This document shows positions 6,209 to 60,034 of a stretch of DNA of 64,000 nt, piece by piece. The stretch lies in assembly GCF_004010195.1 (NCBI RefSeq), contig NC_057755.1:8011466-8075465 (forward strand), read 5' to 3'. A program made the position numbers and the translations under genes. This DNA comes from Chiloscyllium plagiosum. Taxonomy: Eukaryota. Within the stretch, counting starts at the first letter, position 1. Each line of letters begins with the position of its first letter. The notes below the pieces were generated by a model. The model made no database searches. It was given only the letters and a program-made list of their open reading frames with translations, and was not told the DNA's origin.

Positions 6209-6886
6209 TGTAGCAGAACCTCTCAAAACGTTTCAAGAAGATAGCGGAAAACCAAACTTTTCCTATTGTTTTAAGTGGGTGTACAGTGGATATTCCAGGA
6301 GTGGTTCAACTGGTCCAATTATTCTGTTTTAAATAAAACAGAATTTATTTATACACAAACAAAGAGAACCGAATGTAGAATAACGTATGTGAAAATCCCG
6401 ATGAAGGGCTTTTGCCCGAAACGTCGATTTTACTGCTCCTCGGACGCTGCCTGAACTGCTGTACTCTTCTAGCACCACTAATCCAGACTATGTGAAAATC
6501 AATTGACTCTATCACAACTGAATGATGCTGTTTGAAATACTTGCAACATATCCATAGACACCCGCTTGGCTAAAGCAAACACAGATCTTATACAGATGTC
6601 AAAGAGAGAGTCAGGCAGAAAACCGCTGTTGAATCCAGGAAGCTATTCCACACAGCAATTTTCTTTTACTAGCAACTCAAAAATTGACTACTTCCTAAAA
6701 CCAAACCAAATCAAACCTTGAACTGGGAGCATTAACCACTCGCCTTTCATTACGAAATTGTTTTGAAAGAAAGGCTTAAGAGCATTCTCAAGTATATACT
6801 TCCAGAAATATCGGAACCTCAGACTTTATGACCCCCTTTGAATAAAAAGAAAAACATAACATTGTTAAAGGAGCAGCATGGTTACA
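6209..6886 (-). mobile_element. LTR of a Ty3/gypsy element, with a leader fragment at ~6060-6208
   Basis: TGTAGC...GTTACA termini; homologous to 56838-57395; the adjacent 6060-6160 matches 59940-60020, which lies upstream of gypsy gag. Confidence 0.65.
6398..6488 (+). mobile_element. Short Penelope-derived insertion with hammerhead motif (family A)
   Basis: Flanked by 12-bp TSD TATGTGAAAATC (6386-6397 and 6489-6500); CCGATGA-AGGGC-TTTT-GCCC-GAAACGTC. Confidence 0.8.
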
Positions 6887-8124
6887 CGCCATAATCTGAC
6901 TCCATTTTAAGATGCAAGAGCAACAAAAGAAAGTGCTTACAAGGAGTTCATCTTCATTCATCAGGGTCTATGGAGTCCCTTCTCTACGCCTCCTGTAGCA
7001 AGGAGTCCCTCACCAGGGACTGACTCTGCCAAATTTGATGACCCACTGATGCCACCATGAGCCTACACGCCAGGCCTACCTCAGCTAGGAGTCCCTGCTA
7101 CCAGCTGACTGCAGTCAAGATTTCATGCTCCAGGCTAAAAAAGCCAGAAGTCCCTGCCGACATTGCTCTGGCCCCCCTTTGATATCAAGAAGATGAACGA
7201 AAGAAAATTAAAACAAAAGACAAAAAGGAGGGACAGAAAAAGAATGCGGCCCAACTCAGCTTAAACATTACCTGCTCCTTGCTTTCTGGAAGTCCCCGGA
7301 CTGAGGCGGAGCCATGTCTGGCTCATCCCGATGGTGCAAGCAGTAGTTTCTGCTTAGTTTCCTTGTGTACTGCCTATCATTGAGTATTCCCCTGTCTTGT
7401 TCAGTTAGCTAGTTCTTTGTACTGAAGTGATAATTCTGCTTTCAGGCTTCATTGGATGAGACATATTGATATTTGGAATTATAGCAGGCGCCCAGTAATA
7501 AACCATTGATAGAAATTTACACACCATGATCTGCTGTTAGGTTTCACTCGTCCGTCCTCAGGAGAGGGAGTTTCAGGATCAGGCAGAAACAGAACCACTC
7601 CCTGACAAACTCTTATATTCTCCCACACATACAGCAATACAATCACATGAAGAGACATTACACATCAACATTCAAAACATTACAGGAACATTTCTGTGCA
7701 CACACATGATCGCACTCAAACGTATTGACAGAACAGCACACACAATTCGATGCAGACTCATAAACAAACAAACGCACAGATCCTGCTGGAGGCACAAAAA
7801 TCTTGACACATGGACAGGCAGGTAGACACAATCTGAACAACATACTCACCTGCGTGAACAGGAGCACAGCGAGGCAGACTGTGGCCTCCCACAACAATAC
7901 ACCGAGACTCAGAGACAGGTAGACATGGAGTCACAGAAAGATCATGAGATGCTGACAGTAACATACACACGGGCATGCGCGTGCACGCATACACTCAGTA
8001 GATGTACATGTTATAGGAATGTAACCACATACAGTCACGCAATGAACATACACACAGACAGAAAAACATTAAAGGCACGTGAGGAAAATACAGACATTCC
8101 CTACCATAAAGCACAGTCATGACT

Positions 8125-8322
8125 TAGAAATGCCGGTGTTAGATTGGGATGGACAAAGTTAAAAATCACTCAACAGCAGGTCATAGTCCAACAGGTTTAT
8201 TTGGAAGCACTAGCTTTCAGAGAGCTGTTCCTTCCAACAGGTGATGAAGGAGTGGCGCTCTGAACGCTAGTGTTTCCAAATAAACGTGTTAGACTTTGAC
8301 TTGATGTAGTGTGATTTTTTTT
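8125..8322. mobile_element. Inverted pair of Penelope-derived termini (family B), degraded hammerhead motifs
   Basis: Imperfect palindrome centred near 8240; similar to 56218-56361. Confidence 0.7.
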
Positions 8323-8749
8323 AGTATAAAACGCAGTGGCAGGCACATAGATAGAAATACTTACAGTCACAGAAGCACACTGATTCAAGAAAGAAAAAAA
8401 AGAGACACACAGAGGAGTGACATTCCCACAAGGACAATAAAGCCGCCTACACACAGACCCTTGCACCCTGGAAGAGAAAGGCACACAGAAAATTTCCCTC
8501 ACTGACACCGGGCGCAGGGCGGGGAATGGGGAGCGACATAATGAGAGAGCGGGATAGAAACAGTCAAATGGACACAGACCTTTACAGAACTGTAATTAGT
8601 TTTGTGTCAAGGTATTTCTGGTTGTGTCTGTGCATGTTGCGTTTTACAAAATCACTTCCTGCGGTATAATCAGCGACTGAAGGGATGAGGAAGGGATTGA
8701 GCCAATGCATGTGAACATATGCTAAACTGAGTCAAGTTTATCACTTAAT

Positions 8750-8777
8750 CAATGAGAGAAAGAGATGAAGAGAGAGA

Positions 8778-8813
<36 letters not shown>

Positions 8814-9075
8814 GGAGACAGAGAGACAGAGAAACAATTAGACGGAGAGACAAAGAGTGAGAGAGACAGAGAGTGTGACAGAGACAGAGAGAAACTGAGA
8901 GAAATGGGGACAGAGATATATAGAGACAGAAGACAGAGAAAGCCGAAAATAGAGAGAGAAGAGACAGTCAGAATAACAGAAGGAGAGACTGACAGCGAGA
9001 AATTGAAAGATAGGGAGAATGACAGAGATAGAGGCAGTGAAACAGAGTGAAAGGCAGAGATAGAAGGACAGGGAG
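8750..9075. repeat. (GT)n/(GA)n-rich low-complexity tract
   Basis: Direct inspection. Confidence 0.9.
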
Positions 9076-9951
9076 TCACACAATGGCAGATAGAAAGACA
9101 CGGAGGGGGGATGTGTGTAATATCCCAGTATTGTGGGTGTACAGGAGTTGGGCTTCAGAAATTCCTTCAAAAATAAAAAGTCGAGCAGAAAATAATTTCA
9201 AATTTAGATGAGAGGATCACCAGAACACGAAACATTTCTCTTGTTGTATTAAAGTATTTATTGCGGATTGTACAGAGAGAGAGACTGACAATTATCATGG
9301 TGCAGAAGGGACTGTTTTTGCGCCTCCCCCTCCTCCCCTGCGGCAGAAATGCAGAGACCCCACCTGTCTGTCTTTAACACTCCTCAACAGGGCAGTCCAT
9401 GAAGAGCTAATGTTGCAGTTGAACCCATCACTCACAGCCATTCCATCATTTCGAAATACTTCTCCAGCCTCTTTCCATTCTACACTGTCCTTGTCAGCCA
9501 CCTCTTGCCTCCTTACCAGCTGTCCCAATGTGATATCCTTCAGTAATGTTAATGCAGAGAAGGATAAACTATTGTCCAGTCGTGGATAGGGAGGGCTGGG
9601 CTCATCATCTGGCGCAGACATGAATGTGGATTTGACGTTATAATTAGATTAACTGCAATCTTCTGGAATGGCAGAAGGACCAGAATCGAAGGGCTGAATG
9701 TCTAGTACTGCTCGTTGCCTGTGTGTTCCCTTGTGTGACAATCGGTCTGGCAAACAAGGGCAGCAGAGTGTTCCTAAGCATGTTTAATGATGACTGATAT
9801 CACCTCCCATCTTCCCCACTAGGTATTATACTCATATCCAGATGATTGTACTGATGGACTCCTGGCCGTACATTTGCATTTCCAGCACTGGGAATACTAC
9901 GACTGCCTCCCGACTTCTCAGTTAGTTTGCTGAGTCACTAAGAGAACCAAT

Positions 9952-10779
9952 TTACGAGACCAGTTGTTGAACTGTATTCCTGAATTTTGGTCTGAACTTA
10001 GCCAGTGTTACTGCATAAAATAATGTGTTTGTACTGCAGCTGAAATCCCTCAGTAGGCATCCAATTTGTTGATAAGCACCAATAGGTCTTCCATTAATGA
10101 CGAAGTATAAGAAACTTGTACTGTAAAGTAACCACAGAAGTATGAAGCTGACGGATATGGTGAAGAGGGAAATCACTGTCTTCCTTCGGTTCTCCATCTC
10201 TGTATCTTTGTGACTCTCTCCGTTGCTGGGACACTAACATGTGTCTGACTGTCAGAGCGTTCATCAACAGAATTAACACGAATGGGATGAAAGGTGTCAA
10301 AATGTTCTCAAACCAGTTATATCCCTGCCACTTAGGATTAAGTAAAAAACTTAACTTTGTTTGGCAGCCCCATGGAATATTGTGAATTATCTGCCGAGGT
10401 TGAAACCGAAAATAGAAGGGAATGTTTACTGAACAGAACAGAATGCTAATTATCGCTAAAGTCAGAGCCAAAAATTTCTCTGTCCAATATTTTCTCTTCA
10501 GTTTCTGGCAGCAAATGACCACAAAACGATCAAAGGAGAAAGGGACAGTGAACCAGACGGAACAGTCTGTTGTTGCATGAATCAGAACAAAGACAGCACT
10601 GCACACAGGGGTGAGGTCCAGGAAATTCCTTGGGAAGTAATAATTATTGAGTTGTCACAGTATGACATTCACGAGAATGAACAGTAGATCGGAGATTGCC
10701 ATGGCCACCAGGCATCGTGTTGTGCAGTTAGAGAGGCCACACTTTCCACGTGCAAGAACCAAAATCACTACTGAATTAA
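9952..10779 (-). pseudogene. GPR139-like class A GPCR pseudogene, exon 2
   Basis: Acceptor ...TTACAG at 10780. Translation VNSVVILVLARGKCGLS...LVAMAISDLL...TDCSVWFTVPFSFDRFVVICC...LTPFIPFVLILLMNALTVRH...RRKTVISLFTIS...FSCSTNTLFY. In-frame TGA at 10657-10655 and a frameshift/deletion near 10200-10230. Confidence 0.85.
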
Positions 10780-10967
10780 CTGTAATAGATATTATGCAAA
10801 AAGAAAATTGGAAATCGTTGTTAAAACTTTCTCTGCGTCTGTCCAGATAGCAATGATGCTCTAAGTACCGAAATGCGTTAGTTGGGATGGGTATGAGGTA
10901 AAATCTAATAATGACATCTCCCAGCCTGACTCACTTTGAAAATGCCCAGTTCTGGGTTTATAAATAA

Positions 10968-11050
10968 ATGTGTGTGTGTGTGTGTGTGGGGTGGGGGGGG
11001 GGGGGGGGGGTGTGAGGTCGGTGTGTGTGATGGGGTGGGGTGGTGGCTGG
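10968..11050. repeat. (GT)n plus poly-G tract in the GPCR intron
   Basis: Direct inspection; the G-run is about 18 nt. Confidence 0.85.
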
Positions 11051-11889
11051 TGGTGCTTTGCAGTGAATTGAAAGATGACAAGGCACTTAATTTTAAGGTT
11101 AAAAAGCCTGAGTTTGAGAGGATATTTGAAGATAAGGCTTTCACTGGAAAATAGTGGTCTTCTGGAATGCACTGCTTGGGAAGGTATTTGAAGGAGGAAA
11201 CCTAAAAACTTTATCAAGTCTTTGGGTGAGCATTGAGGATCGCACTTCAGGACATCTTCATCTTTCTGGTAGCACCTTTCTTGCCGAAGGTGCTACCAGA
11301 CCAGCTATCTTTCTTCTGTAATTTTTGATTTTCTTTGAGATGTTTCGTTATGGCTGTAAATCTTTGTCTTCACCTGCTTTTGAATTTTAACGCTGATGTG
11401 TTAAGGTTCACAAATTCATAGAAGGTCTAGTCCATTCAGCCATTTGAACTTGCACTGTGGTGGCAGAATCTCAACAGCCATGCTTGCTTTCTGTCCAGTC
11501 GCCTTAGTCTCCATAAGGTCATAAATCTCACCTGTCTCACACCCCTGAAAACAAACTCAGAGATTGAGGAAGAGAGATGAAATGTTGAAGATTGAAAGCA
11601 TTGTCTCTTCCTCCAACACATGACCATCAGGATCTGAATCAATCTGCGAATTTTGAAACTGGAGTCCCATTCCAAGACTCGGTTTCACCGACTTTCAGTT
11701 GCCTGCCCTCTAACCATACGCTATCCATACTCTTGCATTAGCTCTCTTGTCAGGAGATCACCTTCTCGTTCGCAATATCGAACATAGCACTTTCCCAATG
11801 GATTCTGGAAATACGCAGTCTGCATGCACATTCTATGTTAAAAACAGCAGTTGCAAGTCCACATAGGACTACCCCTAATACTATCGACA

Positions 11890-12790
11890 TGTAGAGTCAT
11901 ACAGCACGGCAAAAGAACCTTCTGTGCAACTCATCCATGCCAAACATATACCCTACATGTTCAAGTCCCATGTGGCAACATTTGATCCATATCCTATTCA
12001 TGTACCCGCATAGATGCGTGTTCACTCACTGTTTTAATTGTTCCAGCCTCCACTGTTTCCTCTGGCAGCTAATTACACAAATGCATCACCCTCTGCGTGG
12101 TAGTGGAACCCCTCAGTTTACTTTTAAATCTTTCTCCTCTCAAATTAAATCTATGTGCTGGAGGGTTGGTCTCTTCTACGATGTGGGAAATAGAACATCA
12201 GCTAGTCTTCAACAATTCATGGATCTCTGTAAGGTTACCTCTCAACCTCTAATGGAACCAACCAAAAAAGCTCCAGCTTATTCAATCTCTCCCTTAAGTT
12301 CAAACCCTTCAATCCTGGTAACAGCCTTGTCAATCATTTCTGAACTTTTACAACTTAACACCATATTTACGATAACAGGCAGATCAGATTTGAATGCAGC
12401 ATTCAACAATTACTTCACTAACGACGGCCCAATTCCTATACTCAATGCACTGTGAATGAAGGTAAACATACTGACTACCTTCTACACCATTCTGTCTGCC
12501 TGCAACTCATCTCTCTCTATTCGACAAAACTCCCCAGGGCCATTAAATGAATAAATCCTATCTTGCTTTGCACGACCAAAATGCAACATCCTATATTTAT
12601 GTGAATTAAATTCCATCTGCGTATATGATGTCCAATGCTCAACTGATCAAAGTGCTGCTGTCCTCTGATGTAATCTTTTGCACTATGCACTTCCTCGCGT
12701 ATTCTGCAGTCATCTGCAAATTTTCAAAACATCGTTGCTATATTGGCATTCATATTATTGATATACATGATGAACAGGTAGTGGAACCAA
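11890..12790 (-). mobile_element. Decayed CR1 LINE 3' portion
   Basis: Reverse-strand similarity to the RT C-terminus and 3' UTR of other CR1 copies in the window. Confidence 0.7.
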
Positions 12791-13404
12791 CAATTGCGGC
12801 ATAATGCTTTTAGAAAAGTTCAAAAACAACAGTTGAATGGTGGTGTGCATTCAATTCAAAATCTCTAAAGTTTTGAAATGTCTCAGCAGAGTGTAAAACT
12901 GCCTCCATTTGGAAAGGACAACATGCAATACATGACAATGCAGAAACATGTATTTAGAAACTAGGTCAGACGATTGCTCTGCTCGCCGATAAGATACAGA
13001 TGACTGGTGGTAGTGCAATCTGAATATCTTGTACTTCAGGCAATGACAGAGAAAGAGAATCCTTCAATTGTAATCTCAGCTGGTGCAAGAATTGGATGTA
13101 CACTGTTGGCATCATGCTGCATTACAAAGTCGCTTTCCAGCCAATTGAGCTAACCGATCCCAAAACGCCCCAGTCCATATTTAAATGAAAATAATAGCCA
13201 CAGTGTCAAGTGTGCAGCACTGCAATTTGGTCGGAATGATCATTTTCAAAGATTCCTTTGAAAGAAAGAATCCAAATGCGATCAGTGCGCTGAGGACCTC
13301 TGTGTAACAGATTAACAAGTATGTAAAACACGTTTAACAGGGCAACAAAAAATACCATTGCCAATTTAGGACAGTTAATTGGAATATAACGAGTTAATAT
13401 AACG

Positions 13405-13936
13405 GCCGCATCTGGAGTATTGTGTGCAGTTTTGGTCGCCATACTATCGGAAGGATGTGGAGGCACTGGAACGGATGCAGAGGAGGTTTACCAGGATGTT
13501 GCCTGGTATGGTAGGAAGATCGTATGAGGAAAGGCTGAGGCACTTGGGGTTGTTTTCATTGGAGAAAAGAAGGTTTAGGGGTGACTTGATAGAGGTGCAC
13601 AGGATGATTAGGGGTATAGATAGGGTTGACCGTGAGAACCTTTTTCCACGTATGGAGTCAGCTATTACGAGGGGGAATAGCTTTAAATTTAAGGGTGGTA
13701 GGTATAGGACAGATGTTAGGGGTATGTTCTTTACTCAGCGAGTCGTGAATTCATGGAATGCCCTGTCAGTAGCAGTGGTGGACTCTCCCTCTTTATGGGC
13801 ATTTAAGCGGGCATTGGATAGGCATATGGAGGATAGTGGGCTAGTGTAGGTAAGGTGGGCTTGGATCGGCGCAACATCGAGGGCCAAATGGCCTGTACTG
13901 CGCTGTATTCTTCTATGTTCTATGTTCTATGTTCTA
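13405..13936 (+). mobile_element. 5'-truncated young CR1 LINE
   Basis: Open ORF2 C-terminus QFWSPYYRKDVEALERMQRRFTRMLPG...FFTQRVVNSWNAL; (TTCTATG)n tail. Confidence 0.92.
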
Positions 13937-13983
13937 ATATCCATCTACGATGGAACCATTGTGGGAGCACACTTAGTTTACTC

Positions 13984-14129
13984 CTGAAGAAGGCCATTCC
14001 TGAAGAAGAGCTTATGCCCAAAACGTCGATTCTCCTTCTCCTTCTCCTTTGATGCTGCCTGACCTGCTGCGCTTTTCCAGCAACACATTTTTAAGCTCTG
14101 ATCCCCAGCATCTGCAGTCCTCACTTTCT
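13984..14129 (+). mobile_element. Penelope-derived short insertion (family A)
   Basis: 12-bp TSD CTTAGTTTACTC (13972-13983 and 14130-14141); begins CTGAAGAAGG. Confidence 0.8.
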
Positions 14130-14708
14130 CTTAGTTTACTCAGTCGAGTTCTGGTAAGCATATCACAGCAACATGAGTGGATGCACTGGACAATATGGAA
14201 TTATACGATGGAGAATGATAACTGAACCGAGAAAGATTTGTTCCATTATTAAGGACACCTGCCATTGTCTAAACTCTCTATTAATATAACAATTAACTTC
14301 AGAGACGCAAAGAAACACATTGGTTATTAACTCAAAAACCAGAATGAAACTTACCCTAAGTGGTTTAACTCTTACTGCATAAACTTTCGTCAGTTTATGT
14401 TACACTATTCCACACTGCTTTACTTGATTCTATTGAAACTCCCGAAAGTCTGATCAAAGTGGCGATTTCCAGGAGGTTCCAGGAGGACATGAATTATCCA
14501 ATGGGAATTTCAACTGTCAAGCAATTCCTGCTGAGTGTGTGATGCTGGGGATTCTGCAGGGAGCCTGTGATCTGAACCTAAATCACCGATTGTCTTCTCC
14601 TGCGTGACGGTGGTCACAACATGCCCATGCATCATTGTCAACGGGATAGTGAAACAGCAGAGTATCCTCAGACAGATTCACACAAATTCAGCAGTGCAAA
14701 GTACTTAC

Positions 14709-14775
14709 CAGGAATTATTACAACTGGAATTATCACGTAACATATTTTCTGGACCTGATAAACCGTTTGATACAT
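14709..14775 (-). pseudogene. GPR139-like pseudogene, coding exon 1
   Basis: ATG...MYQTVYQVQKICYVIIPVVIIP plus G, then a GTAAGT donor (14708-14703). Phase 1 matches exon 2 (G|TT AAT = VN) and completes TM1. Confidence 0.8.
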
Positions 14776-16232
14776 TTTCTGCGCAAATTCCTTTGTGCAG
14801 ATAATCTCTCTGTACTAAATGCTGACGGAATATATTTTCAAATCCTTGCATTTAAACCTGGTATTATCACCCGGGGGACAGTCACGTTACTACGCCATTC
14901 AATTAAAGAATTTGAGAAAACAGTTGATGACAGTGAATTAACCCCAAGTGGCGTCAGAACATTTTTTAAAATTGAGGTTTGCTGGGATCACAATCGGTCA
15001 ATATCAAATATTGAAAACGCATCTAGATACCCAAACACTATCCATCCCACTTTTAAATCTCTTTTGATTTAAGTGTCGTCCTTCCCTTGAATTTATCAAT
15101 TTAGGTAATCAAATTCGGTTGTTAAATGCCTCTCTGAGAACTGTTCTCCTGAACACTGGAATGTGCTTCCTGATTAATAACAGCTGTTCCATGAAGAGAT
15201 GATGGTTGGTAAATGGAAACGATGCATTGCAGTGTCAACTAATCCAACATGGCAATAGAATTCCTCGAAGTGCGGGTTAAAAATCTCAATCCACTACAAC
15301 TATAAATTAAAACAGAACTTTAAACATGTTGAACAACCCTTTTGAAGATATTATTAACGGTTACATCAGCTTCAATCAGTACGGACTCTCCTGCAGTTTC
15401 AAGCTGTTCTGGAGATGTTTCAGAGACACACGCACACAAGCTTTTACAACAGCAGTTGGGAGTGAATATTTCTCGTTTCCTGCAGTGTACCTGACATGTT
15501 TAGTGAATATACCTAAAACCCCTGACCAATCAAGTGCTTGAGGCCTTTGAAGATACATGGAGAGGTGTCAAGGGAGCGATTTGCAATGACAAGGATCCAG
15601 AAGTGTCAAACACCAGTACACTTTAAGTTGGTGTCAAATTTCTCAGCGAGCCCAAAGAGTGTTTGGGAAACGGGATTTAGTGAGAGAACTGTTAATGAAC
15701 AGAAAACAGAGAATGTGAATAAACTTATTTTTCAGGCTGTGAGGCCAGGGTTAATGGGTGCCACAAGGAACATTAATCGAGGCAAATCTATTTATAATCT
15801 TTATGAATGACCGAAATGATGTGACCATGTGTTTTGCTTTCTGAGAAACTATTATTTGGTGAGACAGTAACATACAAGGAGGACACATAATAACTCTGAA
15901 AAGGGGAAGCAAAAGTTCAGTGAGTGAGTGAGAAAGAAATAGTATGTGCAACATAAGTTACAGAAAAACGATGCATTGTTCCTTCATTTCAATCTTGAAA
16001 GGATTTCAGACTATTCTGAGATTTATAGATGATGATCATAGTCTGAGGTGAAAAAGAAAAAGACGCCTTTCTGTGTAGTCATATGCCATCAATTTCCATT
16101 TTTCTCTTGAAAAGTTGATATTTCTCGGATCTTTCTGAAATTTAGGAATACAGCCCTGAGTTTGTATCGTTTCATGCCCTCATTATTGAACCGTTGTTTC
16201 ATTCTTGGGAATCTGTACTGCACTCAAATGAT

Positions 16233-16350
16233 GAAGGGCTTATTACCAGAACGTCGATTGTCCTGCTTCTCGATGCTATCTGATCTGTTGTGCTTTACCA
16301 GCACCACGATCTGGTCTCTGATCCCCAGCATCTGCAATCCTCACTTCCTC
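16233..16350 (+). mobile_element. Penelope-derived short insertion (family A)
   Basis: 15-bp TSD CTGCACTCAAATGAT (16218-16232 and 16351-16365); the paralogous site near 49903 is empty. Confidence 0.8.
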
Positions 16351-16677
16351 CTGCACTCAAATGATCATGGACTCTCAACGTTCCACTCGGCCTTGCATTT
16401 CTTTTTTTTTAAATGCAGTTAATGTCAATGCTGCCATAACATTAAATGCCATCAGTGGACATACCTAAAACAGCTGACTGAAGGACTCCTTCAGGGCAAA
16501 CAGTCCTGACTTGACATCGTCCACAATGATGTGTCTCAACCGTGCTCCAGTTCAAGCAGGTCTCAGGAAAGCTACACAGACGCCCGCACTCCATTAGCAA
16601 TCACTCTGTAATTACAAATGATAGACTTGAACAATAACCTCTCAGTGATTCAGGTTTCTGCATCAGAACGCACCTGT

Positions 16678-16805
16678 CTGATGAGGGGCTGAGGCCGGAA
16701 ACATCGATGCTCCTGCTCCTCGGATGCTGCCTGACCCGCTGTGTTTTTCCAGCACTGCACTCTTGACTCTGAGCTCCAGCACCTGCAGTCCTCACTTCCT
16801 CCTCA
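16678..16805 (+). mobile_element. Penelope-derived short insertion (family A)
   Basis: CTGATGAGGGGCTGAGGCCGGAAACATC followed by the family A tail (CAGCACCTGCAGTCCTCAC). Confidence 0.75.
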
Positions 16806-20600: not shown

Positions 20601-21130
20601 TAAGCTTATAACTGGCGGATTGCTTTTTTCCATGTTATACAATTGTAGTGAGGTAACGCTGCAGTGGCCTGTCCAGAATTTAGACCTGAGCAGAGTTGTA
20701 TCAAAGACTGGCAGTTGCCCATGCAGCAAGTCTTCCTTCTTCATGCTACTGATGTTGTCCAAAGGAAGTGCAAGGGCTGATACATCTTTGCACGCAGGAG
20801 TTGCCAGAATGAGGTTGAAGACAAGATTAGAGTTGTGCTGGAAAAGCACAGCAGACCAGGCAGCATCCGAAGAGCAGGAAACTCGAAGTTTCGGGCAGGA
20901 CGCCTTCATGATGAATGAGCTTATTTCTGATGAAGGGCTCCTGCCTGAAGCATCGATTTTCCTACTCCTTAGATGGTGTCTGACCTGCTGTGCTTTTCCA
21001 GCAAACTCTAATCTTGACTCTGATCTCCAGCATCTGCAGTCCTCACTTTCATCTAGAACGAGTTTGAAGACAACATTGGATTGCCTTATGAACTCCCGCT
21101 CTGGATTTGTCCTCAGAGTTTGCTCCTAAA
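17655..21130 (-). mobile_element. Near full-length decayed RTE-clade (BovB-like) LINE
   Basis: Remnants: endonuclease region ~19600-20300; IVTLHKNK...NNYRGITLL; VASTFIRMTKRVW...CVLSTLLYSSET; C-terminal part at ~17700. The RT core appears internally deleted near 18650. Confidence 0.8.
20825..21054. mobile_element. Inverted pair of family A Penelope termini nested in the RTE 5' region
   Basis: Two inverted copies, each with a degraded hammerhead core; ~19-bp TSD AGAAYGAGKTTGAAGACAA (20806-20824 and 21055-21073). Confidence 0.8.
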
Positions 21131-21134
21131 CTTT

Positions 21135-21446
21135 GTGGGCAGCACGGTGGCACAGTTGCACAGTGGTTAGCACTACTGCCTCACAGCACCAGAGACCCCG
21201 GTTCACTTCCTGACTCAGGCGAGTGACTGTGTGGAGTTAGCACATTTTCCCCGTGTCTGCGTGGGTTTCCTCTGGGTAGTCCGGTTTCCTCCCACAGTCC
21301 AAAGATGTGCAGGTCAGGTGAATTGGCCATGCTAAATTGCCCGTAGTGTTAGGTAGGGGGGTAAATGTAGGGGAATGGGTCGGCGGGTCGGTGTGGACTT
21401 GTTGGGCCGAAGTGCCTGTTTCCACACTGTAAGTAATCTAATCTAA
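21135..21446 (+). mobile_element. tRNA-derived SINE (shark HE1-like)
   Basis: A-box TGGCACAGTGG-like, B-box GGTTCACTTCC, core GTGTCTGCGTGGGTTTCCTC, (TAATC)n tail. Confidence 0.85.
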
Positions 21447-22444: not shown

Positions 22445-22925
22445 GAAAATGTTGAATCAGATTTCCATCGCTCCCTCACCACCTGACGCCTGGAGGAATA
22501 ATGCCTCATCTTCCGCCTCAGAACACTTCAACTCCATGGCATCAATTTGGATTTCACCAGTTTCGTCATTTCCCCTTCTCCCACCTCACCCCAGCTCCAA
22601 CCTTCCAGCTCAGCACCTCCCTCATGACCTGTCTTACCTCCCTATCTTCCTTTCCACCTATTCACCCCACCCTCCTCTCTGACCTATCACCTTCATTCCC
22701 ACCCCCATTCACCTATTGTACTCTAAGCTACTTTCTCCCCACTCCCACCCTTCCCTCATTTTTCTCTCCACTCTGCAGGCACTCTGCCTCTATTCCTGAT
22801 GAAGTGTTTTTGCCCGAAACGAGGATTTTCTTGCTCCTCTGATGCTGCCTGACCTCCTGTGCTTTTCCAGCACCACTCTAATCTAGACTCTGGTTTCCAG
22901 CATCTGCAGTCCTTGTTTTTACCTA
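22445..22925 (+). mobile_element. 3' fragment of a family A Penelope-like element
   Basis: ORF-end remnant (TLQLHGINLDFTSF), pyrimidine-rich UTR, degraded CTGATGA...GAAAC motif at ~22796, family A tail. Confidence 0.75.
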
Positions 22926-28219: not shown

Positions 28220-28560
28220 GAGACAGGGCAGCATTCTGACAGCATCAAACATCACCAAGAGAGGGACAGCACAGGGTTAGATACAGAGTAAATCTCCCTC
28301 TCCACTGTCCCATCAAACACTCGCAGGGCAGTGACAGCACCTGGTTAGAGACAGAATAATTCTCCTCTGCACTGTCCCATCAAATATTCCCTGGATACTG
28401 AGAGCAGGGGGTTAGATGCAGATTATCTCTCCCTCTCCACTGTCCCATCGAACATTTGCAGGACAATGACAACACATGATTAGATACAGAGTAAACATGT
28501 CTCTACATTGAACCCAATAAACACTGCCAGTACAGGGACTACATGGGGATAGATACAAAG
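28220..28560. repeat. ~61-bp satellite-like tandem repeat
   Basis: Unit ~GGGACAGCACAGGGTTAGATACAGAGTAAATCTCCCTCTCCACTGTCCCATCAAACACTCCCA. Confidence 0.9.
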
Positions 28561-30230
28561 TGTTACCCCATCTTTAGTAGAGCTTTGATATTGGGAAATC
28601 CCAATAAATTTGGTCATTCCGTGTCACTGTGTCACTCTGTGAGCGAGAGTGTATATGCTTGTACCATCAGGGACTTGCATTATTGGGGCTAATATGACTT
28701 TAATCCATGACCGATTAAATATTCAACAATATTTTCCAATTCTTTGTCCACAAATTTCAGAAAGCCAATGTGATGGTGTAACGCAATTCCAGAACTGATT
28801 TTGAGAGATGATCCCCTCTTCTGTCGTGACAGAATTCCTGATCCACAACTGAATCCTTCTCTGCTCCTGCCTCAAGTTAACATTGTACCATTTAGTCTGC
28901 ATTGTCCGTCCTCATTCTAACATTCAAACACCATCGCTTTCCATCTCATCGTACTCCATCTGCAGGAGGCTGAGAGATTATCATACACAAACTGTGAGGG
29001 TTTTTTTTTAATCTGCAAAACCAGGAAGAAGCATTCAAAACGTGTCAGTCATCTTTGGTATGTTGGTGGCAGCTATTTCAAGTTAGCCCAGCGCTGCCAT
29101 TGACATTATAAATAGGGAGATGCAAGAAAGAGTGGGGATTGGGGAGTGCGTCTGTATCTGAGTGCAGGAAAGGTTCACCAGAGTAGGTGGACAGCAAGAG
29201 GTCACTGGGGAGGAAGGGAAATGACGCAAACACAGGGTTGTGCCCCTGGGATTCAAAAGGATTGGACGGAATGAAAGTTTTTAATACATTAATGGAAATT
29301 GTTGGTATAGATAGAGAGAAAATCTTCTTGCTGCTTCTGAGTCCATGATCAGAATCAACGTCCAAAACTCGAACAGTACTCTGAAACCGTTTCAAGATTA
29401 AAATGAAGGAACAAAGCCTCCCATTTCTTTGTGTGATATTGCATACAATATGTCTTACTCACTCACTCACTGATCATATTCAACCCCCGTCACCCCTCCC
29501 AGTCTTTCTGTATCCTTGCATTTTACTGTCCCACATCTGTTTGTGTTATCAGCAAACGAAAGACAGGATCCCATCATCTCAGACATTCATAGAGACTGTG
29601 TTTAGTAAACACTGTAGGTAACAGTGAATGATTCCCTCCCATCTGCTGCTGTATAGCTCGTGTCTGTCTCAGAGTCAGCTCTGAAACATCTAAAGGACTG
29701 TGCGTCTCTGGCTCTGTATCTGTGTCTGTAACTCTCTCGCTCTGCCTCTGCATACATCTTCCCCATTCCATCAATCACACTGAGGAAATTTCAAATCTGC
29801 TCAATTCGCTGTAACCCAATTTGAGATGTCACTGAGGACATGGAATGTATTTTATAAATGTCCATCCCTCATTTACCTTGTGGGTTTGCAGTGCCAGGCT
29901 GTGATTTGGTTAAGTCCAGGCAAGGCCTCTTCCCCCAAGGACATTGGGTGACCGTTTTGTTCTTTATAACAAATAGAAAGCCCTCAACTTCACATGTCTA
30001 TTTCACAGGAATTCTGTGCTTCATATTTATTGGCCAACAACAGTTTCTCTGTGAATGTTTTGCTGAGATGACGTCAAAAATCCTGAGGACCAATTTCATC
30101 CTCAGACACCTTCCCAAAGACAGTAAACAGCGTCTGCGTGTATCCTCTTCAAGTCTCTCTGTCTCTCCCGCATGCCATCACACTATTGTTCTCTCCCATT
30201 CTCTCTCTGTCTCTCTCTCTCCCTCTCTTT

Positions 30231-32505: not shown

Positions 32506-34218
32506 TTAAACATCGTCCCCGAAATTCGCTTGCATCATTCCGGAGATTTCATCCATCTTGGTCTCACTCATCTCCTCATCATTTAGTCGATAAAGTTCCT
32601 CTGTCTGATTCCCTTTTTGGGGCATCTGTTTCATCAAGGCTGTTTCAATCAGTCTTTGGGTGAGCCCTCGTATACAGGGTATGATACAACAGCCAATGGC
32701 CACCAATACCCCAACTACTACCATCAGGGAAGTAAGGATAGAAACCACCACCCCTTCCATTTTCCAAACCATGATTCAAGCCATCCCGTGAGAGATGTGT
32801 CTACTCCTGAATTCTCAGCCAGTTCCTCTGCTAAGGTAGTCTATCCCCTCAAGGTCCGACTAATTGAACCATCAGGTGCAGTGTTATTAGGAATAAAGGT
32901 ACAACAGCTTCCTCCTAACATCACACACACACACCCTTTTTCTGCTAAAATCATATCAAGGGCAATTCTGTTTTCCCATGCCATCCTACTTGTCGCATCA
33001 AGCTGTTCTGATATTCCTTTAACCGCATCTCTTGTATAATTTATAAATCGCTGTTGATTACAGAAAATGTAATTTATCCAATCTACATTTTTATTAACTG
33101 TGACCCACCAAAAGGGAGCTGACTCATAGCCTGCTGCAATCTGATTACGAGCCTTGAACTCATCAGGTACATGCCTAGGGACTCCTACAGAATCGAGATA
33201 AATCCTGTCATCGAATGAAGTGNNNNNNNNNNNNNNNNNNNNNNNNNNNNNNNNNNNNNNNNNNNNNNNNNNNNNNNNNNNNNNNNNNNNNNNNNNNNNN
33301 NNNNNNNNNNNNNNNNNNNNNNNNNNNNNNNNNNNNNNNNNNNNNNNNNNNNNNNNNNNNNNNNNNNNNNNNNNNNNNNNNNNNNNNNNNNNNNNNNNNN
33401 NNNNNNNNNNNNNNNNNNNNNNNNNNNNNNNNNNNNNNNNNNNNNNNNNNNNNNNNNNNNNNNNNNNNNNNNNNNNNNNNNNNNNNNNNNNNNNNNNNNN
33501 NNNNNNNNNNNNNNNNNNNNNNNNNNNNNNNNNNNNNNNNNNNNNNNNNNNNNNNNNNNNNNNNNNNNNNNNNNNNNNNNNNNNNNNNNNNNNNNNNNNN
33601 NNNNNNNNNNNNNNNNNNNNNNNNNNNNNNNNNNNNNNNNNNNNNNNNNNNNNNNNNNNNNNNNNNNNNNNNNNNNNNNNNNNNNNNNNNNNNNNNNNNN
33701 NNNNNNNNNNNNNNNNNNNNNNNNNNNNNNNNNNNNNNNNNNNNNNNNNNNNNNNNNNNNNNNNNTAATTCGAAAACAACAGCCCAAGAAATCCCTCCCA
33801 TTTGCTTTCATTTTGATCCCAAATGTTTCATTTAATTATATCTCATAGGTGCCCCCCCCCCCAGAATTGCTTCGTGCCATGTGGTTTTCCTTATTGTTAG
33901 GTATATTGGGTTACACTTTTTATCGAAACAATCACGAGCTGGTCGGAAGGGGGCCCGGTGTACTGTGACGGGACCATTATACCAAGTACCATCCCCGAGG
34001 CCATCCCCATAGGACTTAAGATGTATCTCAGAGCTGCGGTACTGTCTCTGATTATCTACATCCCCGCAATTCACTAAACTGCATGCATTAGTGTCTATCA
34101 CTTGTAGATTATCAGACTCAGGAACTGTTAATAATACATATGAAAATAATATTTGACGAAATCCCAATACTAAGAGGGCTAGCATCATAACTCTAAGCAT
34201 TCCCAGTATTCTAAACAT
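32506..34218 (-). pseudogene. env: ERV env (gamma-type), frameshifted and partly in an assembly gap
   Basis: Hydrophobic signal-like N-terminus; ISD-like ENRIALDMILAEKG; CX6CC (CVMLGGSCC); membrane anchor GVVVSILTSLMVVVGVLVAIGCC; frameshifts near 33855 and 32843. Confidence 0.92.
33223..33765. other. Assembly gap (543 N)
   Basis: Run of N. Confidence 1.
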
Positions 34219-34299
34219 AATGCTGAAGCACAAAAAGACTTAATATACAATCTTACAGAAATAATCCCGTGCTCGCGTCGCCACTGTATAATCAGTTAC

Positions 34300-37200
34300 T
34301 CAAAGTCTCTTTAGTCTGAGTTTCAGCGGGTCTTGTGTTGATTCGGCTGTCCAGACTTCTTCCTCAACTGGAGGGTCCACAGGCCCTTTGATCCGAGTGT
34401 AGTGAGTCCAACCTTTCTTCGCCGTCCTTATTGCCGTTTCGGTAGTCAAAAGAGCCTGATACGGCCCTTCCCAGTCCGGCTGCAATTTAGTCTCTGTCCA
34501 TGATTTTACTAAGATCCAATCGCCCAGCCGGATGGGGTGAACGGTGATTCAAGGGGTGGAGTCTGTGCCAATAAACCCTGTTTCCTGAGGAAAGATAAAG
34601 AGGAGGACAAGCCCAATATATAATTCTTTAAAAACAAATCTTTAGTTTCGGGAATTGGCAATTCTCCATTCGTTCCCAGATAAGGTAATCCAAATAAAAT
34701 TTCATAGGGGGATAGTCCCAAATCTTTCCTTGGGGCTGTTCGTACCCGCAAGAGAGCTATAGGTAAACATTTGGTCCAAGGGAGTCTGGTTTTTATTATC
34801 AATTTAGAGATCTGTCGTTTGAGTGTTTGGTTCATTCTCTCAACCCTTCCCGATGATGGTGGGTGCCACGGAGTATGGAACTCCCAGGAAATTCACAACC
34901 CCTTCATTACCCCCTGTAACAGGTAAAATGGGTTCCTTGGTCGGAATCTATACGGTTCACTAGCCCATATCGGGGAAATATGTGCTCCAATGTTGTTTTA
35001 GACACCCCACTCGCAGTGGCGGTAGCTAGGTGGTATGCCTCAACTCAACCAGATAGATGATCTACTATGACAATCATATATTTTAGTCTTCCTACTCTGG
35101 GTAGTTCAGTATAATTTACTTGTATACTCTGGAAGGGTCTCAATCCTGCGTTTCTTCCTCCCGGGGTCTGTTTTCTCAAGACTTTTTTATTTACTTTTCT
35201 GCATATTATACATCCCTCACATATTTGTTTAGCAATTGTATATATTCCTTTACATCCATATTCCCTAAGAACTAAATCACACATTGCTTGTACTCCCCAA
35301 TGACTGCCTTGGTGTAGGACAGCCATAATCTCTCACATCATCATTTTGTTTAACATTTCCCTTCCATCAGCTAACCTCCAATGCCCGTCTGGTGTTTTTG
35401 CAGCCCCTAAATCTCTCAATTCTTTTTCTTCTCTTTCAGTAAATTATAGGAGCTTCCCTAGGATCTGGGACAGTAGGTATTAGGGAATGAATCACTACTG
35501 CTTGTGGGTTCAGGGCGGCCTCCCTAGCCACTTCATCGGCTAATCTATTTCCCCTAACTTCTGGTTCATTTCCTTTCTGATGACCATTTACGTGCACTAT
35601 GGCTATCTCTCGGGGGAGTAATAGGGATTCCAAGACTCGTTTAATCAATTCTTCGTGAACTAATTCCTTCCCCCGCCAATGATCAGTCCTCTTTCCTGCC
35701 ATATCTTTCCGAAAGTGTGCACAACACCAAATGCATATTTAGAGTCAGTGTATACTGTTCCCTCTTTATTTTCTAATGCCCTAAGGGCTCTTTCCAATGC
35801 ATACAGTTCGCAGGTCTGAGCTGACCACCCATTTGGCAGCCTTCCTGCCTCCACCACACTACCTTTTGTCCCATTTACGACTGCATACCCATTATGTCTT
35901 TTCCCTTCAGTCACCCGGGATGATCCATCTATAAAAAGTCTAGCCCCTGCTTGGAGCAGAACATCTCTCAGGTCCATGCGGACCTTAGTTTGGTATTCTA
36001 TAATGTCAAGGCAGTCGTGCCTGGATTCTGAGGAGAGTCTCCTTCCCCTTTCCAAAGAAAGGCAGCTGGATTTAAACAATTATCAGTGACCAACACTAGA
36101 TCATCTTTTTCTATTAATATCGCCTCATATTTCAGAATCCACGAGTCTGTCAACCATCGCCCAGCTTTTTGGTTTAGGATCGTTCTCACTTGGTGTGGGC
36201 TGCTTACTATTAGGGCTCCCCCAAATGTCAGCTTTCTGCTTTCCTGCACCAACAGTGCAGTGGCAGCCACAGCCTGCACACACTCAGGCCATCCCCGGGA
36301 TACTGAATCCAATAGCTTCGAAGGATATGCTACTGGCTGTCTCATCCCTCCCCACCTCTTAGTTAATACTCCCAAAGCCGCTCCCTTATCTACGGTAGCA
36401 AAGAGGTGGAAAGGTTTATCTAGGGAAGGTAAGGCTAAGACGGGGGCATGAATCAGATCTCTTTTGAGTTTCTCAACTAGTTCTTTTTCCTCATCATCCC
36501 AATTTAGACATTTTGGCTCCCCCTCTAATAGTTTGAGATATAATTTCCTAGTCTTCTGAGCATAGGAATCTATCCACAATCTGCAATATCCCATTAGACC
36601 CAAAAATTTGCGTAACTCCCGTTTAGTGCTGGGCAGTGGCATCCCCACTATTCCCTCTATCCGTTCTGGGCTTATCTTTCGATTGCCCTCACACACTAAA
36701 TGTCCCAAGTATTTTACTTCTTGCTCCACATATTGTAATTTGTTTCTAGATACTCGCAGTCCTTGCTGACCCAGGAAATTCAATAATTTGTTAGTGGCTT
36801 CTACTATTTCTCTTCTTTTTCCTGTTACTAAGACATCGTCTACGTACTGCAACAGGGTAGTCCCCTTGGGGTTGCTAAATTTCTCCAATATTTGTTCTAA
36901 CATCTGTCCAAATAAATTCGGGGATTCCGTAAACCCCTGGGGGAGCACAGTCCACCGGTATTGCTGTTTCTGTCCTGTCTTAGTGTCTTCCCATTCAAAA
37001 GCGAACAAGTTCCTACTTTCCTCCACCAAGGGACAAGCCCAAAAGGCATCCTTTAAATCTATTGCACTAAACCATTTGTGGTCATGAGGGATCTTACTTA
37101 ATAACGTATAGGGGTTTGGCACCACTGGGTGTCTGATCTGTACTATTCGATTTAATGTTCTCAAATCCTGCACCAATCGATAAGTTCCATCAGATTTCCG

Positions 37201-37806
37201 CACTGGCAGAATTGGGGTATTATAAGGAGACATACATGGCTCCAACAGACCATCTCTAATCAGTCCTTCAATTACTGGCTGCAGTCCTCGTTAACCTTCT
37301 ATGGAAATAGAATATTGTCGCTCACAGACAACATTCCCTTTCCGTTTTAAATTTATTAGAAGGGGAGGGATCTGTAGTTTTCCACGATTCCCTTCTCTAG
37401 CCCATACAATAGGGTCTATCTCTCTCGCCACATCCTCTGTCAACTTTGCCATTTGTACAACTAATTATTTTTCCTGAATTCCAATCTCCAGTCCTAAGAG
37501 GATAATTAAGTCTCTCCCTAGTAAGTTACTTCCTATATCAAGGATATACATCAGTTCCCCTATGACCCTATCCTTCGGACCTTCTATCATCATAGGTTTA
37601 AATACTGGAACAGTAAATCCTTCCCCTTTTACCCCCGAAACAGTAATTGACCGTGTCGACATTTCTACTTTCTTTGGTTTAAAATTCAACGATGACCGTG
37701 CTGCCCCCGTATCTACTAGGAAGACTACCTCTTCCATATAGGGTCCCACCTTCAGGTTTATCAAGGGTTCCTGGTTGGCCCCCGAGGGCAGGAACCCCTG
37801 ACACCC
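34300..37806 (-). pseudogene. pol: ERV pro-pol (protease, RT, RNase H, integrase), disrupted
   Basis: LVDTGA and LLGRD; DLKDAF, LPQGF, YVDD; FIDGSS, AQTCEL, YTDSKY; integrase H-H-C-C, DSDQG and ERMNQTLK; WEGPY C-terminal motif. Multiple stops and frameshifts; the first integrase Asp reads N. Confidence 0.96.
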
Positions 37807-37809
37807 CTA
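37758..37809 (-). promoter_or_regulatory. gag amber stop with readthrough stem signal
   Basis: TAG (37809-37807) GGGTGTCA GGGGTTCCTG...CAGGAACCC; pro is in frame with gag. Confidence 0.85.
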
Positions 37810-41084: not shown

Positions 41085-41381
41085 TTTAGATGAGATTAGA
41101 TTACATACAGTGTGGAAGGGCCCTTCGGCCCAACAAGTCCACACCGCCCCGCCGAAGCGCAACCCACCCATAACACAACGGGCAATTTAACCTGGCCAAT
41201 TCACCTGACCTGCACACCTTTGGACTGTGGGAGGAAACCGGAGCACCCGGAGGAAACCCACGCAGACATGGGGAGAACGTGCAAACTCCACACAGTCAGT
41301 CGCCTGAGGCGGGAATTGAACTCGGGTCTCTGGCGCTGTGAGGCAGCAGCGCTAACCACTGGGCCACCGTGCCGCCCACAA
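41085..41381 (-). mobile_element. HE1-like SINE (internally deleted)
   Basis: Reverse complement of the 21135-21446 family, with A/B boxes. Confidence 0.85.
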
Positions 41382-47981: not shown

Positions 47982-48245
47982 GGTAAAAACAATGACTGCA
48001 GATGCTGGAAACCAGATTCTGGAGTAGTGGTGCTGGAAGAGCACAGCAGTTCAGGCAGCATCCAAGGAGCTTCGAAATCGACGTTTCGGGCAAAAGCCCT
48101 TCATCAGGAATAAAGGCAGTGAGCCTGAAGCGTGGAGAGATAAGCTAGACGACGGTGTGGGTGGGGAGAAAGTAGCATAGAGTATAAGTGAGTGGGGGAG
48201 GGGATGAAGGTGAAATGACCAGGGAGTTGCAGTGGGAGAGGCTCA
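47982..48245 (-). mobile_element. Family A Penelope 3' fragment
   Basis: Reverse complement of 22600-22925; absent at the paralogous site near 30150. Confidence 0.8.
48076..48111 (-). ncRNA. Minimal hammerhead ribozyme motif (family A)
   Basis: AUUC-CUGAUGA-A-GGGC(UUUU)GCCC-GAAA-CGUC-GAUU; core intact, helix I weak (U-U mismatch). Confidence 0.7.
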
Positions 48246-51494: not shown

Positions 51495-51636
51495 GTCAGC
51501 CTCATTCCTGAAGAAGGGCTTATGCCCGAAACGTCGATTCTCATGCTCCTCGGATGCTACCTGGCCTGCTGTGTTTTTCCAGCACCACATTTTTCAACTC
51601 TGGCATTCCAGCATCTGCAGTCCTCACTTTCTCCTA
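51495..51636 (+). mobile_element. Family A Penelope-derived short element with an intact hammerhead core
   Basis: ATTC-CTGAAGA-AGGGC-TTAT-GCCC-GAAACGTC-GATT plus the family tail. Confidence 0.8.
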
Positions 51637-55500: not shown

Positions 55501-56217
55501 ATGTGGGAAGCTAGAGAAGACTGGGCTTCATTCTGAGACATTTAAATCATTGATAGCCACCGAACAGGTACTGGAAGTCTAGAGGCTGGTTAATGTGCTG
55601 CCAGTATTGAAGAAAGATTGTCAGGAAAAGCTAGGGAACTATAGACCAGTGAGTTTGATGTTATTGATAGGTAAGAGAGTGGGTGAGTGAAATACTTCCA
55701 AGGAGGCATCTCTAAGTCTCCTTTTTATAAAAGTGCACAATGCATGTACTCGGAGCAGCTTGATCAGTGCCTTCGCTAAAATGAGGAGAATTTATGAGAC
55801 CCCTGTCTATATGTGTCAGATACGGCTTTTTGATTGGTCCTGGTTAACAGCGCCAATCATGGATTTCATATTCGATGAGATCGATTGGGTTCTTTTTCTA
55901 ACCACTGTCGAGGCCATTCCGAAGGACAGGAAGTATTTGGAAAGGCAAGGAATGAACAGCGATCGACCATAAGGCTTGGTGCATGAAACATAATGTCTTC
56001 CCAACTTCATTGAATTTTTCTGAAGAAGTGATAAGGAGGACTGATGAAGACAGAGTGGTGGACCTTTTCTGTAGTGATTTCAACAAGGCCAAATGTCCAG
56101 TGGTATAACTGCAAGGATTGATACTAATTCCACTGCGATATGTGATTTATGTTATTTTTGTTTTGGTGTGAATACAGCAGGGATGGTTGCAATTTTGAAG
56201 ATTACACTAAAATCGAT

Positions 56218-56361
56218 TCGGAGATGCCGGTGTTGGACCGGGGTGTACAAAGGTAAACATCACAAAACACCAGGTTATAGTCCAACAGGTTTAATTGGAA
56301 GCACACGAGCTTTCGGAGCGACGCTCCTTCATCAGGTGATTTTGGTGTTGTGTGATGTTTA
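56218..56361 (-). mobile_element. Family B Penelope-derived insertion
   Basis: 12-bp TSD ACTAAAATCGAT (56206-56217 and 56362-56373); short inverted segment at the end. Confidence 0.8.
56304..56338 (-). ncRNA. Minimal hammerhead ribozyme motif (family B)
   Basis: CAC-CUGAUGA-A-GGAGC(GUC)GCUCC-GAAA-GCUC-GUG: helix I CAC/GUG, palindromic AGCU helix III, CUC triplet. Confidence 0.8.
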
Positions 56362-56837
56362 ACTAAAATCGATGGTCGAATAGATAGTCTAAAAGGTCAT
56401 CACATAGTGCACCAGGACACAGGTCAGATGGGCTAGTGCAATGATGAGTAACAGGGGGAGTTTAGTATGGACAAATGTGACGTTCTAAATTTGGCAGTGC
56501 AAGTAAGGGCAGGACCTATACACTTCATGCTAAAGTCTTGAGGAATGTTGGCGAACGAAGAGGCCTTGGATTGGAGTCTGATATTTACTTGTAAGTGATT
56601 TCGCGGGTACACCAATTTTACTTGCATCATTGGAGGCCTACGTTTATAGAAATTATAAAATTACAAGGGGCATTGATGCTGTGACAAGCAAGGTCTTTTT
56701 CCAGCGGCGAGATCTCCAAAACTTGAAGGCTTTGTTTCGGGGGAGAGGGGAAATATCTGTTCCTCTGGATGAATGATTTATATACTGTCACACATATTTC
56801 GGGTGGAACCACGAAAGACTTTCTGTCGCCTGGCATT

Positions 56838-60030: not shown

Positions 60031-60034
60031 CAAT

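Follow-up and report, generated by a model that had tools for sequence, protein, structure and literature searches.

Endonuclease-bearing (EN+) Penelope-like elements (PLEs) are described as insertion units in which a pseudo-long terminal repeat (pseudo-LTR, pLTR) is accompanied by an optional tail of 30-40 bp and an adjacent inverted, 5'-truncated copy, solo pLTRs also being found (PMC3846280, PMC8557442). How PLEs make pseudo-LTRs and what their hammerhead ribozymes do are open questions in the field. The stretch considered here, 64,000 nucleotides of contig NC_057755.1 of Chiloscyllium plagiosum (the window), is repeat-rich shark DNA in which short inserts of a PLE family begin at a hammerhead. 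These stubs resemble EN+ PLE units in their target site duplications (TSDs), frequent 5' truncation, 5' microhomology and a parent open reading frame (ORF) with reverse transcriptase (RT) and GIY-YIG domains, as well as in head-to-head arms of which only one is tailed. Nonetheless, the available text of both sources treats 5' truncation as variable, whereas the window stubs have a fixed 5' zone at the hammerhead, and it ascribes TSD-less solo pLTRs to recombination or deletion, whereas the solo stubs of the window are TSD-bounded primary insertions.

A second comparison is offered by PAc, a Poseidon element of Anolis carolinensis, whose protein both nicks and extends each of the two target strands. 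Reverse transcription begins within the RNA, at two sites that mark the limits of the genomic tail, lying one tail apart and slightly more than 100 nt into a hammerhead-headed region; its main template is uncleaved RNA, and the product length tracks the template 5' end (PMC11167929). The window family appears alike in these respects, but PAc is of the Poseidon clade and its ORF begins at helix II, whereas the linker of the window family is of Neptune/Nematis type and its subfamilies share no conserved reading frame beyond the core. No genomic 5' boundary is given in the main text on PAc. Published minimal PLE hammerheads, mostly single dispersed motifs from truncated PLEs, share with the window family the CUGANGA core, an extra base before helix II, a 4-bp helix II, GAAA, a palindromic minimal helix III and a short helix I; in the model published for them the RNA is cut at the ribozyme and then circularised, while the window junctions avoid the cut site. 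Non-LTR retrozymes are likewise non-coding, hammerhead-bearing and pLTR-derived, but form head-to-tail tandem arrays with a complete hammerhead per unit (bioRxiv 10.64898/2026.07.22.740005), whereas the window stubs are single or head-to-head, with helix I cut short. Our literature search, with most subscription papers and Repbase reports outside its scope, found no description of a fixed 5' boundary at PLE hammerheads (Fig. S2 of PMC11167929 may bear on the point). The element type, tails, inversions and microhomology are ordinary, and the interest lies in the fixed 5' boundary, which two families and two organisms show at the helix I foot.

The short inserts and their 5' boundary

Positions within the element are numbered from the C of CUGANGA (+1), the hammerhead cut site lying after +28. 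Family copies were gathered by BLAST, with the four inserts of an earlier sequence-only reading as queries, and by 3'-end motif scans; TSDs came from dedicated searches, and junction coordinates were taken by hand from alignments. An Rfam scan at the gathering threshold gave no match. Pattern scans for further copies returned none in viral sets, metagenomes or prokaryote genomes, and the 120 + 2 loci matching a 19-letter pattern, with a best alignment to the inserts of 49 nt, were all discarded as chance. The four inserts are laid out as follows.

6386..6397, plus strand: left TSD of the 6398 insert, TATGTGAAAATC; its final TC is microhomology with element -2..-1, and its AAAATC is complementary to +29..+34
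6398..6488, plus strand: short PLE insert running from +1 to about +91, where it ends without a tail; U4 of the core replaced by C
6489..6500, plus strand: right TSD of the 6398 insert, perfect, 12 bp, TATGTGAAAATC
13972..13983, plus strand: left TSD of the 13984 insert, 12 bp, CTTAGTTTACTC
13984..13999, plus strand: doubled head, element +1..+10, then CCATTC (element -5..-1)
14000..14130, plus strand: short PLE insert with tail
14130..14141, plus strand: right TSD of the 13984 insert, perfect, 12 bp
16218..16232, plus strand: left TSD of the 16229 insert, 15 bp; its final TGAT is element +2..+5 (4-nt microhomology)
16233..16352, plus strand: short PLE insert with tail
16351..16365, plus strand: right TSD of the 16229 insert, perfect, 15 bp; its initial CT is common to the element end
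16678..16802, plus strand: short PLE insert from +1, without clean TSD

The inserts at 6398, 13984 and 16229 are TSD-bounded, as the sequence-only reading had claimed, the duplications being perfect and 12, 12 and 15 bp long, and the target TGAT at 16229 does overlap the core; the 16229 target is present as a single copy at a paralogous empty site near 49905. At 16678 no clean TSD was found, in line with that reading; a degenerate candidate (CGCACCTG/CATACCTG) was weighed and turned down. The 5' starts are +1 (6398), +1 (13984), +2..+6 (16229) and +1 (16678). The head at 13984 reads CTGAAGAAGG-C-CATTC-CTGAAGA, its main core beginning at 14000, a layout that fits both a template jump back after reaching -5 and a later 16-bp duplication. 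The core at 6398 reads CCGATGA, and all four inserts bear core or helix II changes, while core and helix II are intact at 48107 and 51508, two of the further copies that bring the family to nine arms in eight insertion events.

20807..21073, arms on both strands: head-to-head arms of a single insertion, core C at 20911 (minus) and 20927 (plus), 18-bp TSD
22460..22923, plus strand: long 5'-truncated copy, core 22796, with decayed ORF C-terminus, pyrimidine-rich 3' untranslated region (UTR), hammerhead and tail
47982..48213, minus strand: longer copy, core C 48107, with at least 106 nt of upstream sequence (to -106 or further)
51498..51635, plus strand: short insert, core 51508, start near -10 (AGCCTCATTC), with a degenerate 7-bp TSD candidate only

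The TSD of the head-to-head insertion is 16/18 identical (20807-20824 vs 21056-21073) and its arms join at AGCT, about -8 to -10, one ending near +89 and the other near +127; the 22796 copy has its 5' end at about -335, as bounded by comparison with a paralogous site. Over the first ~90 nt the window copies are 68-89% identical in pairs and fall into several subfamilies, the long copy 22796 being 73-81% identical to the stubs. Their 3' ends lie near +89..+91 and +124..+131; 7 of 9 family arms end on T or have T next, mostly TA, and at +126 the flanks have an AT-rich consensus, which suggests a target preference. Four pairs of old paralogous blocks (~70% identity: 21993-23075/51215-51977, 16150-16960/49900-50480, 47730-48380/29900-30380 and 6200-6550/56840-57070) act as empty sites for several PLE inserts.

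Of the eight events, six begin within -10..+5 and not one at +29, the cut site; the BLAST searches and 3'-end motif scans of the window found no family copy starting between +6 and about +60. Under exponential truncation, the probability that six of eight starts fall in any 20-nt stretch is 0.023 for a mean of 60 nt, 0.003 for 100 nt and 0.0005 for 150 nt. A generic motif scan of the window recovered two further hammerhead families, the third a single long copy at 43221 and the second represented by two events.

56206..56373, minus strand: second hammerhead family, apparently PLE-type, core C 56335, perfect 12-bp TSD (56206-56217 / 56362-56373)
8127..8319, arms on both strands: second family, head-to-head pair, arms meeting at about -3 and +2, without clean TSD

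The first of these is composed of the TSD, an 18-nt inverted piece and the element from about -3..-5 to +118, whereas the pair carries a tail on its long arm and none on its short arm; the family is assigned as probably PLE-type from motif and insertion structure only. Both events start within -5..+2. For the three families together, 8 of 11 events fall at -10..+5 (P 0.007 to 0.00004; 0.0005 at a mean of 100 nt), a separate computation having used 8/10 events with 43221 left out. Starts at or within CTGANGA and away from the cut site, as first proposed, hold for the four inserts, but "first bases of the core" is slightly too narrow, given the other copies, with starts at about -8 to -10: the boundary lies at the helix I foot, slightly ahead of the core.

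Junctions in public contigs and reads

Four public runs were aligned at 87% likeness to window positions 47950-48249, with copy 48107 as reference for all alignments: contigs from organism A (X2), contigs from organism B (X13), raw RNA reads (X21) and X22, in which no reads aligned and which counts neither way. Loose alignment ends are reported here for six positions per run, presumably the six largest, with 627 more outside them, and the X2 counts are a minimum. In contigs of both organisms the strongest 5' junction with unrelated flanks is -4 (48111), where 555 of 4887 partly aligned contigs in X2 and 479 of 4809 in X13 have loose ends, with agreement of 0.33 and 0.32, respectively, and a median loose length of 255. 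The 3' peaks at 47982 (+126; 427 in X2, 454 in X13) and 48019 (+89; 67 in X13) are 37 nt apart; the +126 peak counts only copies with the tail of the 48107 subfamily while that at -4 gathers all subfamilies, and their heights are not comparable. The cut site (48079-48080) is absent among the six positions per run, whose smallest counts are 74, 67 and 111; the high agreement at 48027, 48070, 48075 and 48076 marks subfamily differences. Opposite-strand joints at 48111 occur in 19 + 2 X2 contigs and 10 + 2 X13 contigs.

Depth over both strands in X21 is 827 at +45, 712 at +26, 696 at +15, 629 at +5, 128 at -6, 97 at -13 and 36 at -63, i.e., level from +26 to +15 with a five-fold drop between +5 and -6, and 234 of 1569 partly aligned reads have loose ends at -4 (agreement 0.44). 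In a simulation that takes agreement as the mean match to consensus and assumes one shared upstream sequence, values of 0.32-0.33 cap the share of long copies from one subfamily at about 15%, or the mean extension at ~2 nt, and 0.44 fits about 25-30% long copies. Strand depths are similar in X21 and no site was seen where many molecules begin; this polyA single-cell library cannot place a transcription start and counts neither way. The window clustering and the contig peak at -4 both bear out a fixed 5' boundary at the ribozyme, away from the cut site. The boundary zone spans about -14..+5, starts being most frequent at -4 or slightly upstream of it, and the pattern is real and sharp, in a known kind of element.

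The parent element and other features of the window

In the 22796 copy, the decayed ORF end was translated with X at two stops. A word search with this broken peptide found nothing, while phmmer gave three matches, P0004 leading on to PLE ORFs and P0002 and P0003 being set aside as repeat-protein noise; the whale-shark fragment that phmmer found at 73% identity led to six longer proteins. The peptide matches predicted proteins of Rhincodon typus and Stegostoma tigrinum. The peptide from 22460-22576 is identical at 22 of 32 residues to the C-terminal part of P0006, with which a PDB search gave no match; P0005, a relative of P0006 from another shark, matches Pfam RVT_1 (below cut-off) and GIY-YIG (above cut-off) and has a Zn-finger-like cysteine linker, CNRRKCYTC, between RT and endonuclease, such a linker being a feature of Neptune/Nematis (PMC8557442). 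Because the long copy 22796 holds the end of an RT + GIY-YIG ORF, the stubs are, judging by sequence relationships that run via this copy, the hammerhead-plus-tail end of an EN+ PLE, in support of the Penelope origin first ascribed to them.

Other traits of EN+ PLEs were compared in turn. At 22796 the hammerhead follows the ORF end and 3' UTR, in sense to the ORF; the optional 30-40 bp tail is seen in the window 3' ends and in the contig peaks at 48019 and 47982; an inverted pLTR beside a direct one, together with TSDs, is represented by 20807-21073, 8127-8319 and the opposite-strand joints. The window holds no full-length pLTR-ORF-pLTR copy, nor a head-to-tail tandem array of the family such as defines non-LTR retrozymes. 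One fixed non-autonomous element, an option of the sequence-only reading, is only half borne out: the 68-89% identity, the two 3' ends, the long copies 22796 and 48107 and the second family with the same boundary speak against it, and a single family resembling short interspersed nuclear elements (SINEs), with fixed ends and no long parent, was rejected on the first three of these grounds.

A remnant of a different PLE lies at 43100-44146 (minus strand), where a GIY-YIG-type ORF end (Pfam E 0.03) runs into its own hammerhead at 43221; it has no visible cysteine linker before the endonuclease and may be Poseidon-type, and a 68-bp tandem repeat interrupts this long copy. Dispersed arrays of a 68-bp tandem repeat occupy 28265-28495, 42834-45285 and 48444-49847, and a perfect 42-bp array 1-310. 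A broken endogenous retrovirus extends over about 32800-39000 (minus strand, N gap 33223-33765), with gag-, RT-, RNase H-, integrase- and envelope-like ORF pieces, labelled by eye, in several frames. A fragment of a rhodopsin-family G protein-coupled receptor (GPCR) gene at 10094-10654 (minus strand; 7tm_1, E 8e-11) and decayed GPCR-like sequence near 14650-15070, 16000-16200, 29080-29460 and 47260-47700 suggest a pseudogene cluster. The 3' ends of long interspersed nuclear elements (LINEs), which we take to be CR1-type, lie at 13403-13937 and 709-962, 93% identical to each other and with a TTCTATG repeat tail, and a dispersed SINE-like repeat with a presumably tRNA-like head has copies about 80-85% identical at 21130-21445, 41093-41382, 45927-46118 and 60034-60142.

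Origin of the boundary and its meaning

Proximal helix I ends at -4, with C-G, U-A, U.U and A-U pairs in all five family copies tested, and its extension ends at about -10. Unconstrained folding recovered the full hammerhead fold in none of seven copies. In the long copies 22772-22854 and 48050-48131, pairing joins CAGGC (about -21) to GCCTG (about +52), and further pairs are predicted in the 48107 subfamily; on these two sequences only, the full hammerhead domain may reach about -24. Position -4 is also the A of an initiator-like YYANWYY, which we take to be the initiator consensus, in five of six family copies scanned. Reading ACGT as a downstream promoter element (DPE) was rejected, its spacing being off by two from what we presume to be the consensus, as was the idea that a reading frame opening with the ATG at +4 or +47 is conserved, since a stop follows 17 codons on and subfamilies differ by a 2-nt indel.

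The reading of the boundary that we favour is that it marks where an uncleaved template RNA has its 5' end. We propose, at about an even chance of being right, that the stubs are solo pseudo-LTRs from ordinary PLE retrotransposition, in which reverse transcription starts in the RNA leader and runs off an uncleaved 5' end near -4. What is observed are TSD-bounded PLE ends with 3' ends at +89 and +126, 5' ends near -4 and the cut site intact throughout. The element RNA would begin a few bases upstream of CUGANGA (modal position -4), most likely at a transcription start, and would not be self-cleaved when copied. The PLE protein would nick an AT-rich target and start reverse transcription inside the RNA at either of the two tail sites; primed at the site in the 5' leader, the cDNA would reach the RNA end after 90-130 nt, like strong-stop DNA, and microhomology of 0-4 nt would link it to the opposite target strand, with a few bases trimmed. 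Priming from both target strands would give head-to-head pairs with both arms ending at the same boundary, and priming in the downstream pseudo-LTR would give long, variably truncated copies. Such run-off would yield TSD-bounded stubs with a fixed 5' zone and an intact cut site, and head-to-head arms that share the boundary with a tail on one arm, as at 20807-21073 and 8127-8319.

The 37-nt spacing of the 3' peaks fits a tail of 30-40 nt and agrees with the pair of internal sites at which RT starts in the Anolis PLE. In Drosophila virilis Penelope and in Chlamys-3, transcription starts inside the pseudo-LTR (PMC8557442, PMC2377424); with a start in the upstream pseudo-LTR, the leader would hold the same priming sites, and priming there would yield only a short run-off cDNA. 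Microhomology of 2, 2 and 4 nt at the three direct inserts with perfect TSDs (P = 0.0009, n = 3) explains the junctions, and is a known joining route for PLE and LINE 5' ends (PMC3846280).

Several points weigh against this proposal. The RNA 5' end near -4 is itself inferred, and YYANWYY is common in pyrimidine-rich sequence (9 hits in the 335 nt upstream of 22796) and absent from this position in the second family. In D. virilis, 46 nt and a 75-nt intron separate the start from helix I downstream, so that it is not at the helix foot (PMC4209133, PMC2377424), and the Anolis enzyme is of the Poseidon clade while the cysteine linker of the window family is of Neptune/Nematis type. Part of the -4 peak is a reference artefact: subfamilies that mismatch the reference at -5 pile up at -4 although their true ends lie anywhere between -4 and about -14 or further upstream. 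Of the X21 loose ends at -4, perhaps between a quarter and a third are long copies of another subfamily, and several differing upstream sequences would likewise depress agreement. The junction counts cover the listed positions and not the full histogram, those of X2 being minimum values, and a minority of copies cut at +29 could sit within the counts at 48070. A more specific version remains quite tentative: shark PLE transcription may start inside helix I, with the leader ribozyme born with a shortened helix and thereby escaping cleavage, and leader priming giving a strong-stop-like cDNA that integrates directly.

Among the alternatives, it is unlikely, though compatible with the run-off proposal as a second step, that the stubs spread as SINE-like elements with an internal promoter and their own transcription, mobilised in trans, a few master stubs setting the 5' end. 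Short copies do far outnumber long ones (X21 depth 629 at +5 vs 36 at -63), an internal TATA-less promoter exists in D. virilis Penelope (PMC2377424), and non-autonomous PLE derivatives have been described (PMC8557442; bioRxiv 10.64898/2026.07.22.740005); however, the window copies are just 68-89% identical and of several subfamilies, two of which have long copies with the same 3' part, both ends vary, and the boundary is common to a second family. Stalling or release of RT at the hammerhead foot, at helix I or at a bound protein on a longer RNA, also raised in the sequence-only reading, seems to us doubtful. The last proximal pair at -4 and the end of the extension at about -10 would suit it, and cleavage by the Anolis hammerhead requires the PLE protein, which may thus sit on the fold (PMC11167929). 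On the other hand, RT reaches CUGA only after the helix I 3' strand, the cut site and helix II, and with that strand copied first the helix would already be open at -4; the pairing predicted in the two long copies extends past the boundary to about -24, and in vitro the Anolis enzyme reads through its hammerhead, product length following a template 5' end upstream of it (PMC11167929).

Rather improbable, in turn, is a boundary set by processing, whether by splicing or trimming of the RNA, at a 3' splice site or otherwise a short way upstream of helix I, or by endonuclease resolution of the cDNA at ATT. A pyrimidine tract with CAG ending at -18 is present in both long copies and a CAG ending at -9 in 51508, in D. 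virilis helix I begins where the intron stops (PMC4209133), and the Anolis endonuclease prefers 5'-ATT-3' (PMC11167929), which occurs at -4..-2; yet the three clean inserts have no exon-1 sequence between TSD and core, none of the joints listed (15 of 35) has intron-type ends for the element strand, and ATT also occurs at +30 without a peak among the listed positions.

Pairing, as the element integrates, between target DNA and the helix I 3' strand, by which the sequence-only reading would set the junction, is highly improbable. The perfect 6-bp match of AAAATC with GATTTT at 6398 was confirmed; what is distinctive there are the four A's, with a chance of 0.0005 per site, or 0.007 given the TC microhomology, and the example was noticed after the fact. 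Contiguous in-register pairs between the target and the bases after the cut site number 6, 2, 0 and 0 in the four inserts, a full match in one only, and since element -1, -2 and -4 already pair with its own +29, +30 and +32, TC microhomology mimics partial helix I pairing and yields the two pairs automatically. Beyond -4, the plurality letters in the contigs are the element's own upstream bases and not complements (a weak test), and an end primed on +29..+34 would be expected to give an inverted piece, not a direct junction. The helix I rebuilt at 6398 is moreover unlikely to give an active ribozyme, because core U4 is C, a change that makes activity unlikely under established hammerhead chemistry. 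Least credible is chance, i.e., random 5' truncation with copies noticed only when the motif shows, which the small window sample and a P of just 0.023 at a mean truncation of 60 nt would allow, but which the public runs largely refute, as X21 depth is flat from +26 to +15 before its drop and the peaks recur in two organisms, the copies having been found by homology search rather than by motif and none starting at +6..+60.

A fixed boundary upstream of the ribozyme, with no cut-site peak among the listed positions, argues for an uncleaved template and against a cleave-and-circularise model. It predicts precisely where the capped end of the RNA should lie, at -4 to -14, and would account for many PLE stubs of 90-130 bp in this genome. 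Were the promoter internal, each stub would be a self-sufficient SINE-like element transcribed by RNA polymerase II and made of little beyond a ribozyme. If the proposed origin is true, the genome keeps a record, at nucleotide resolution and repeated across families, of the 5' end of the PLE template.

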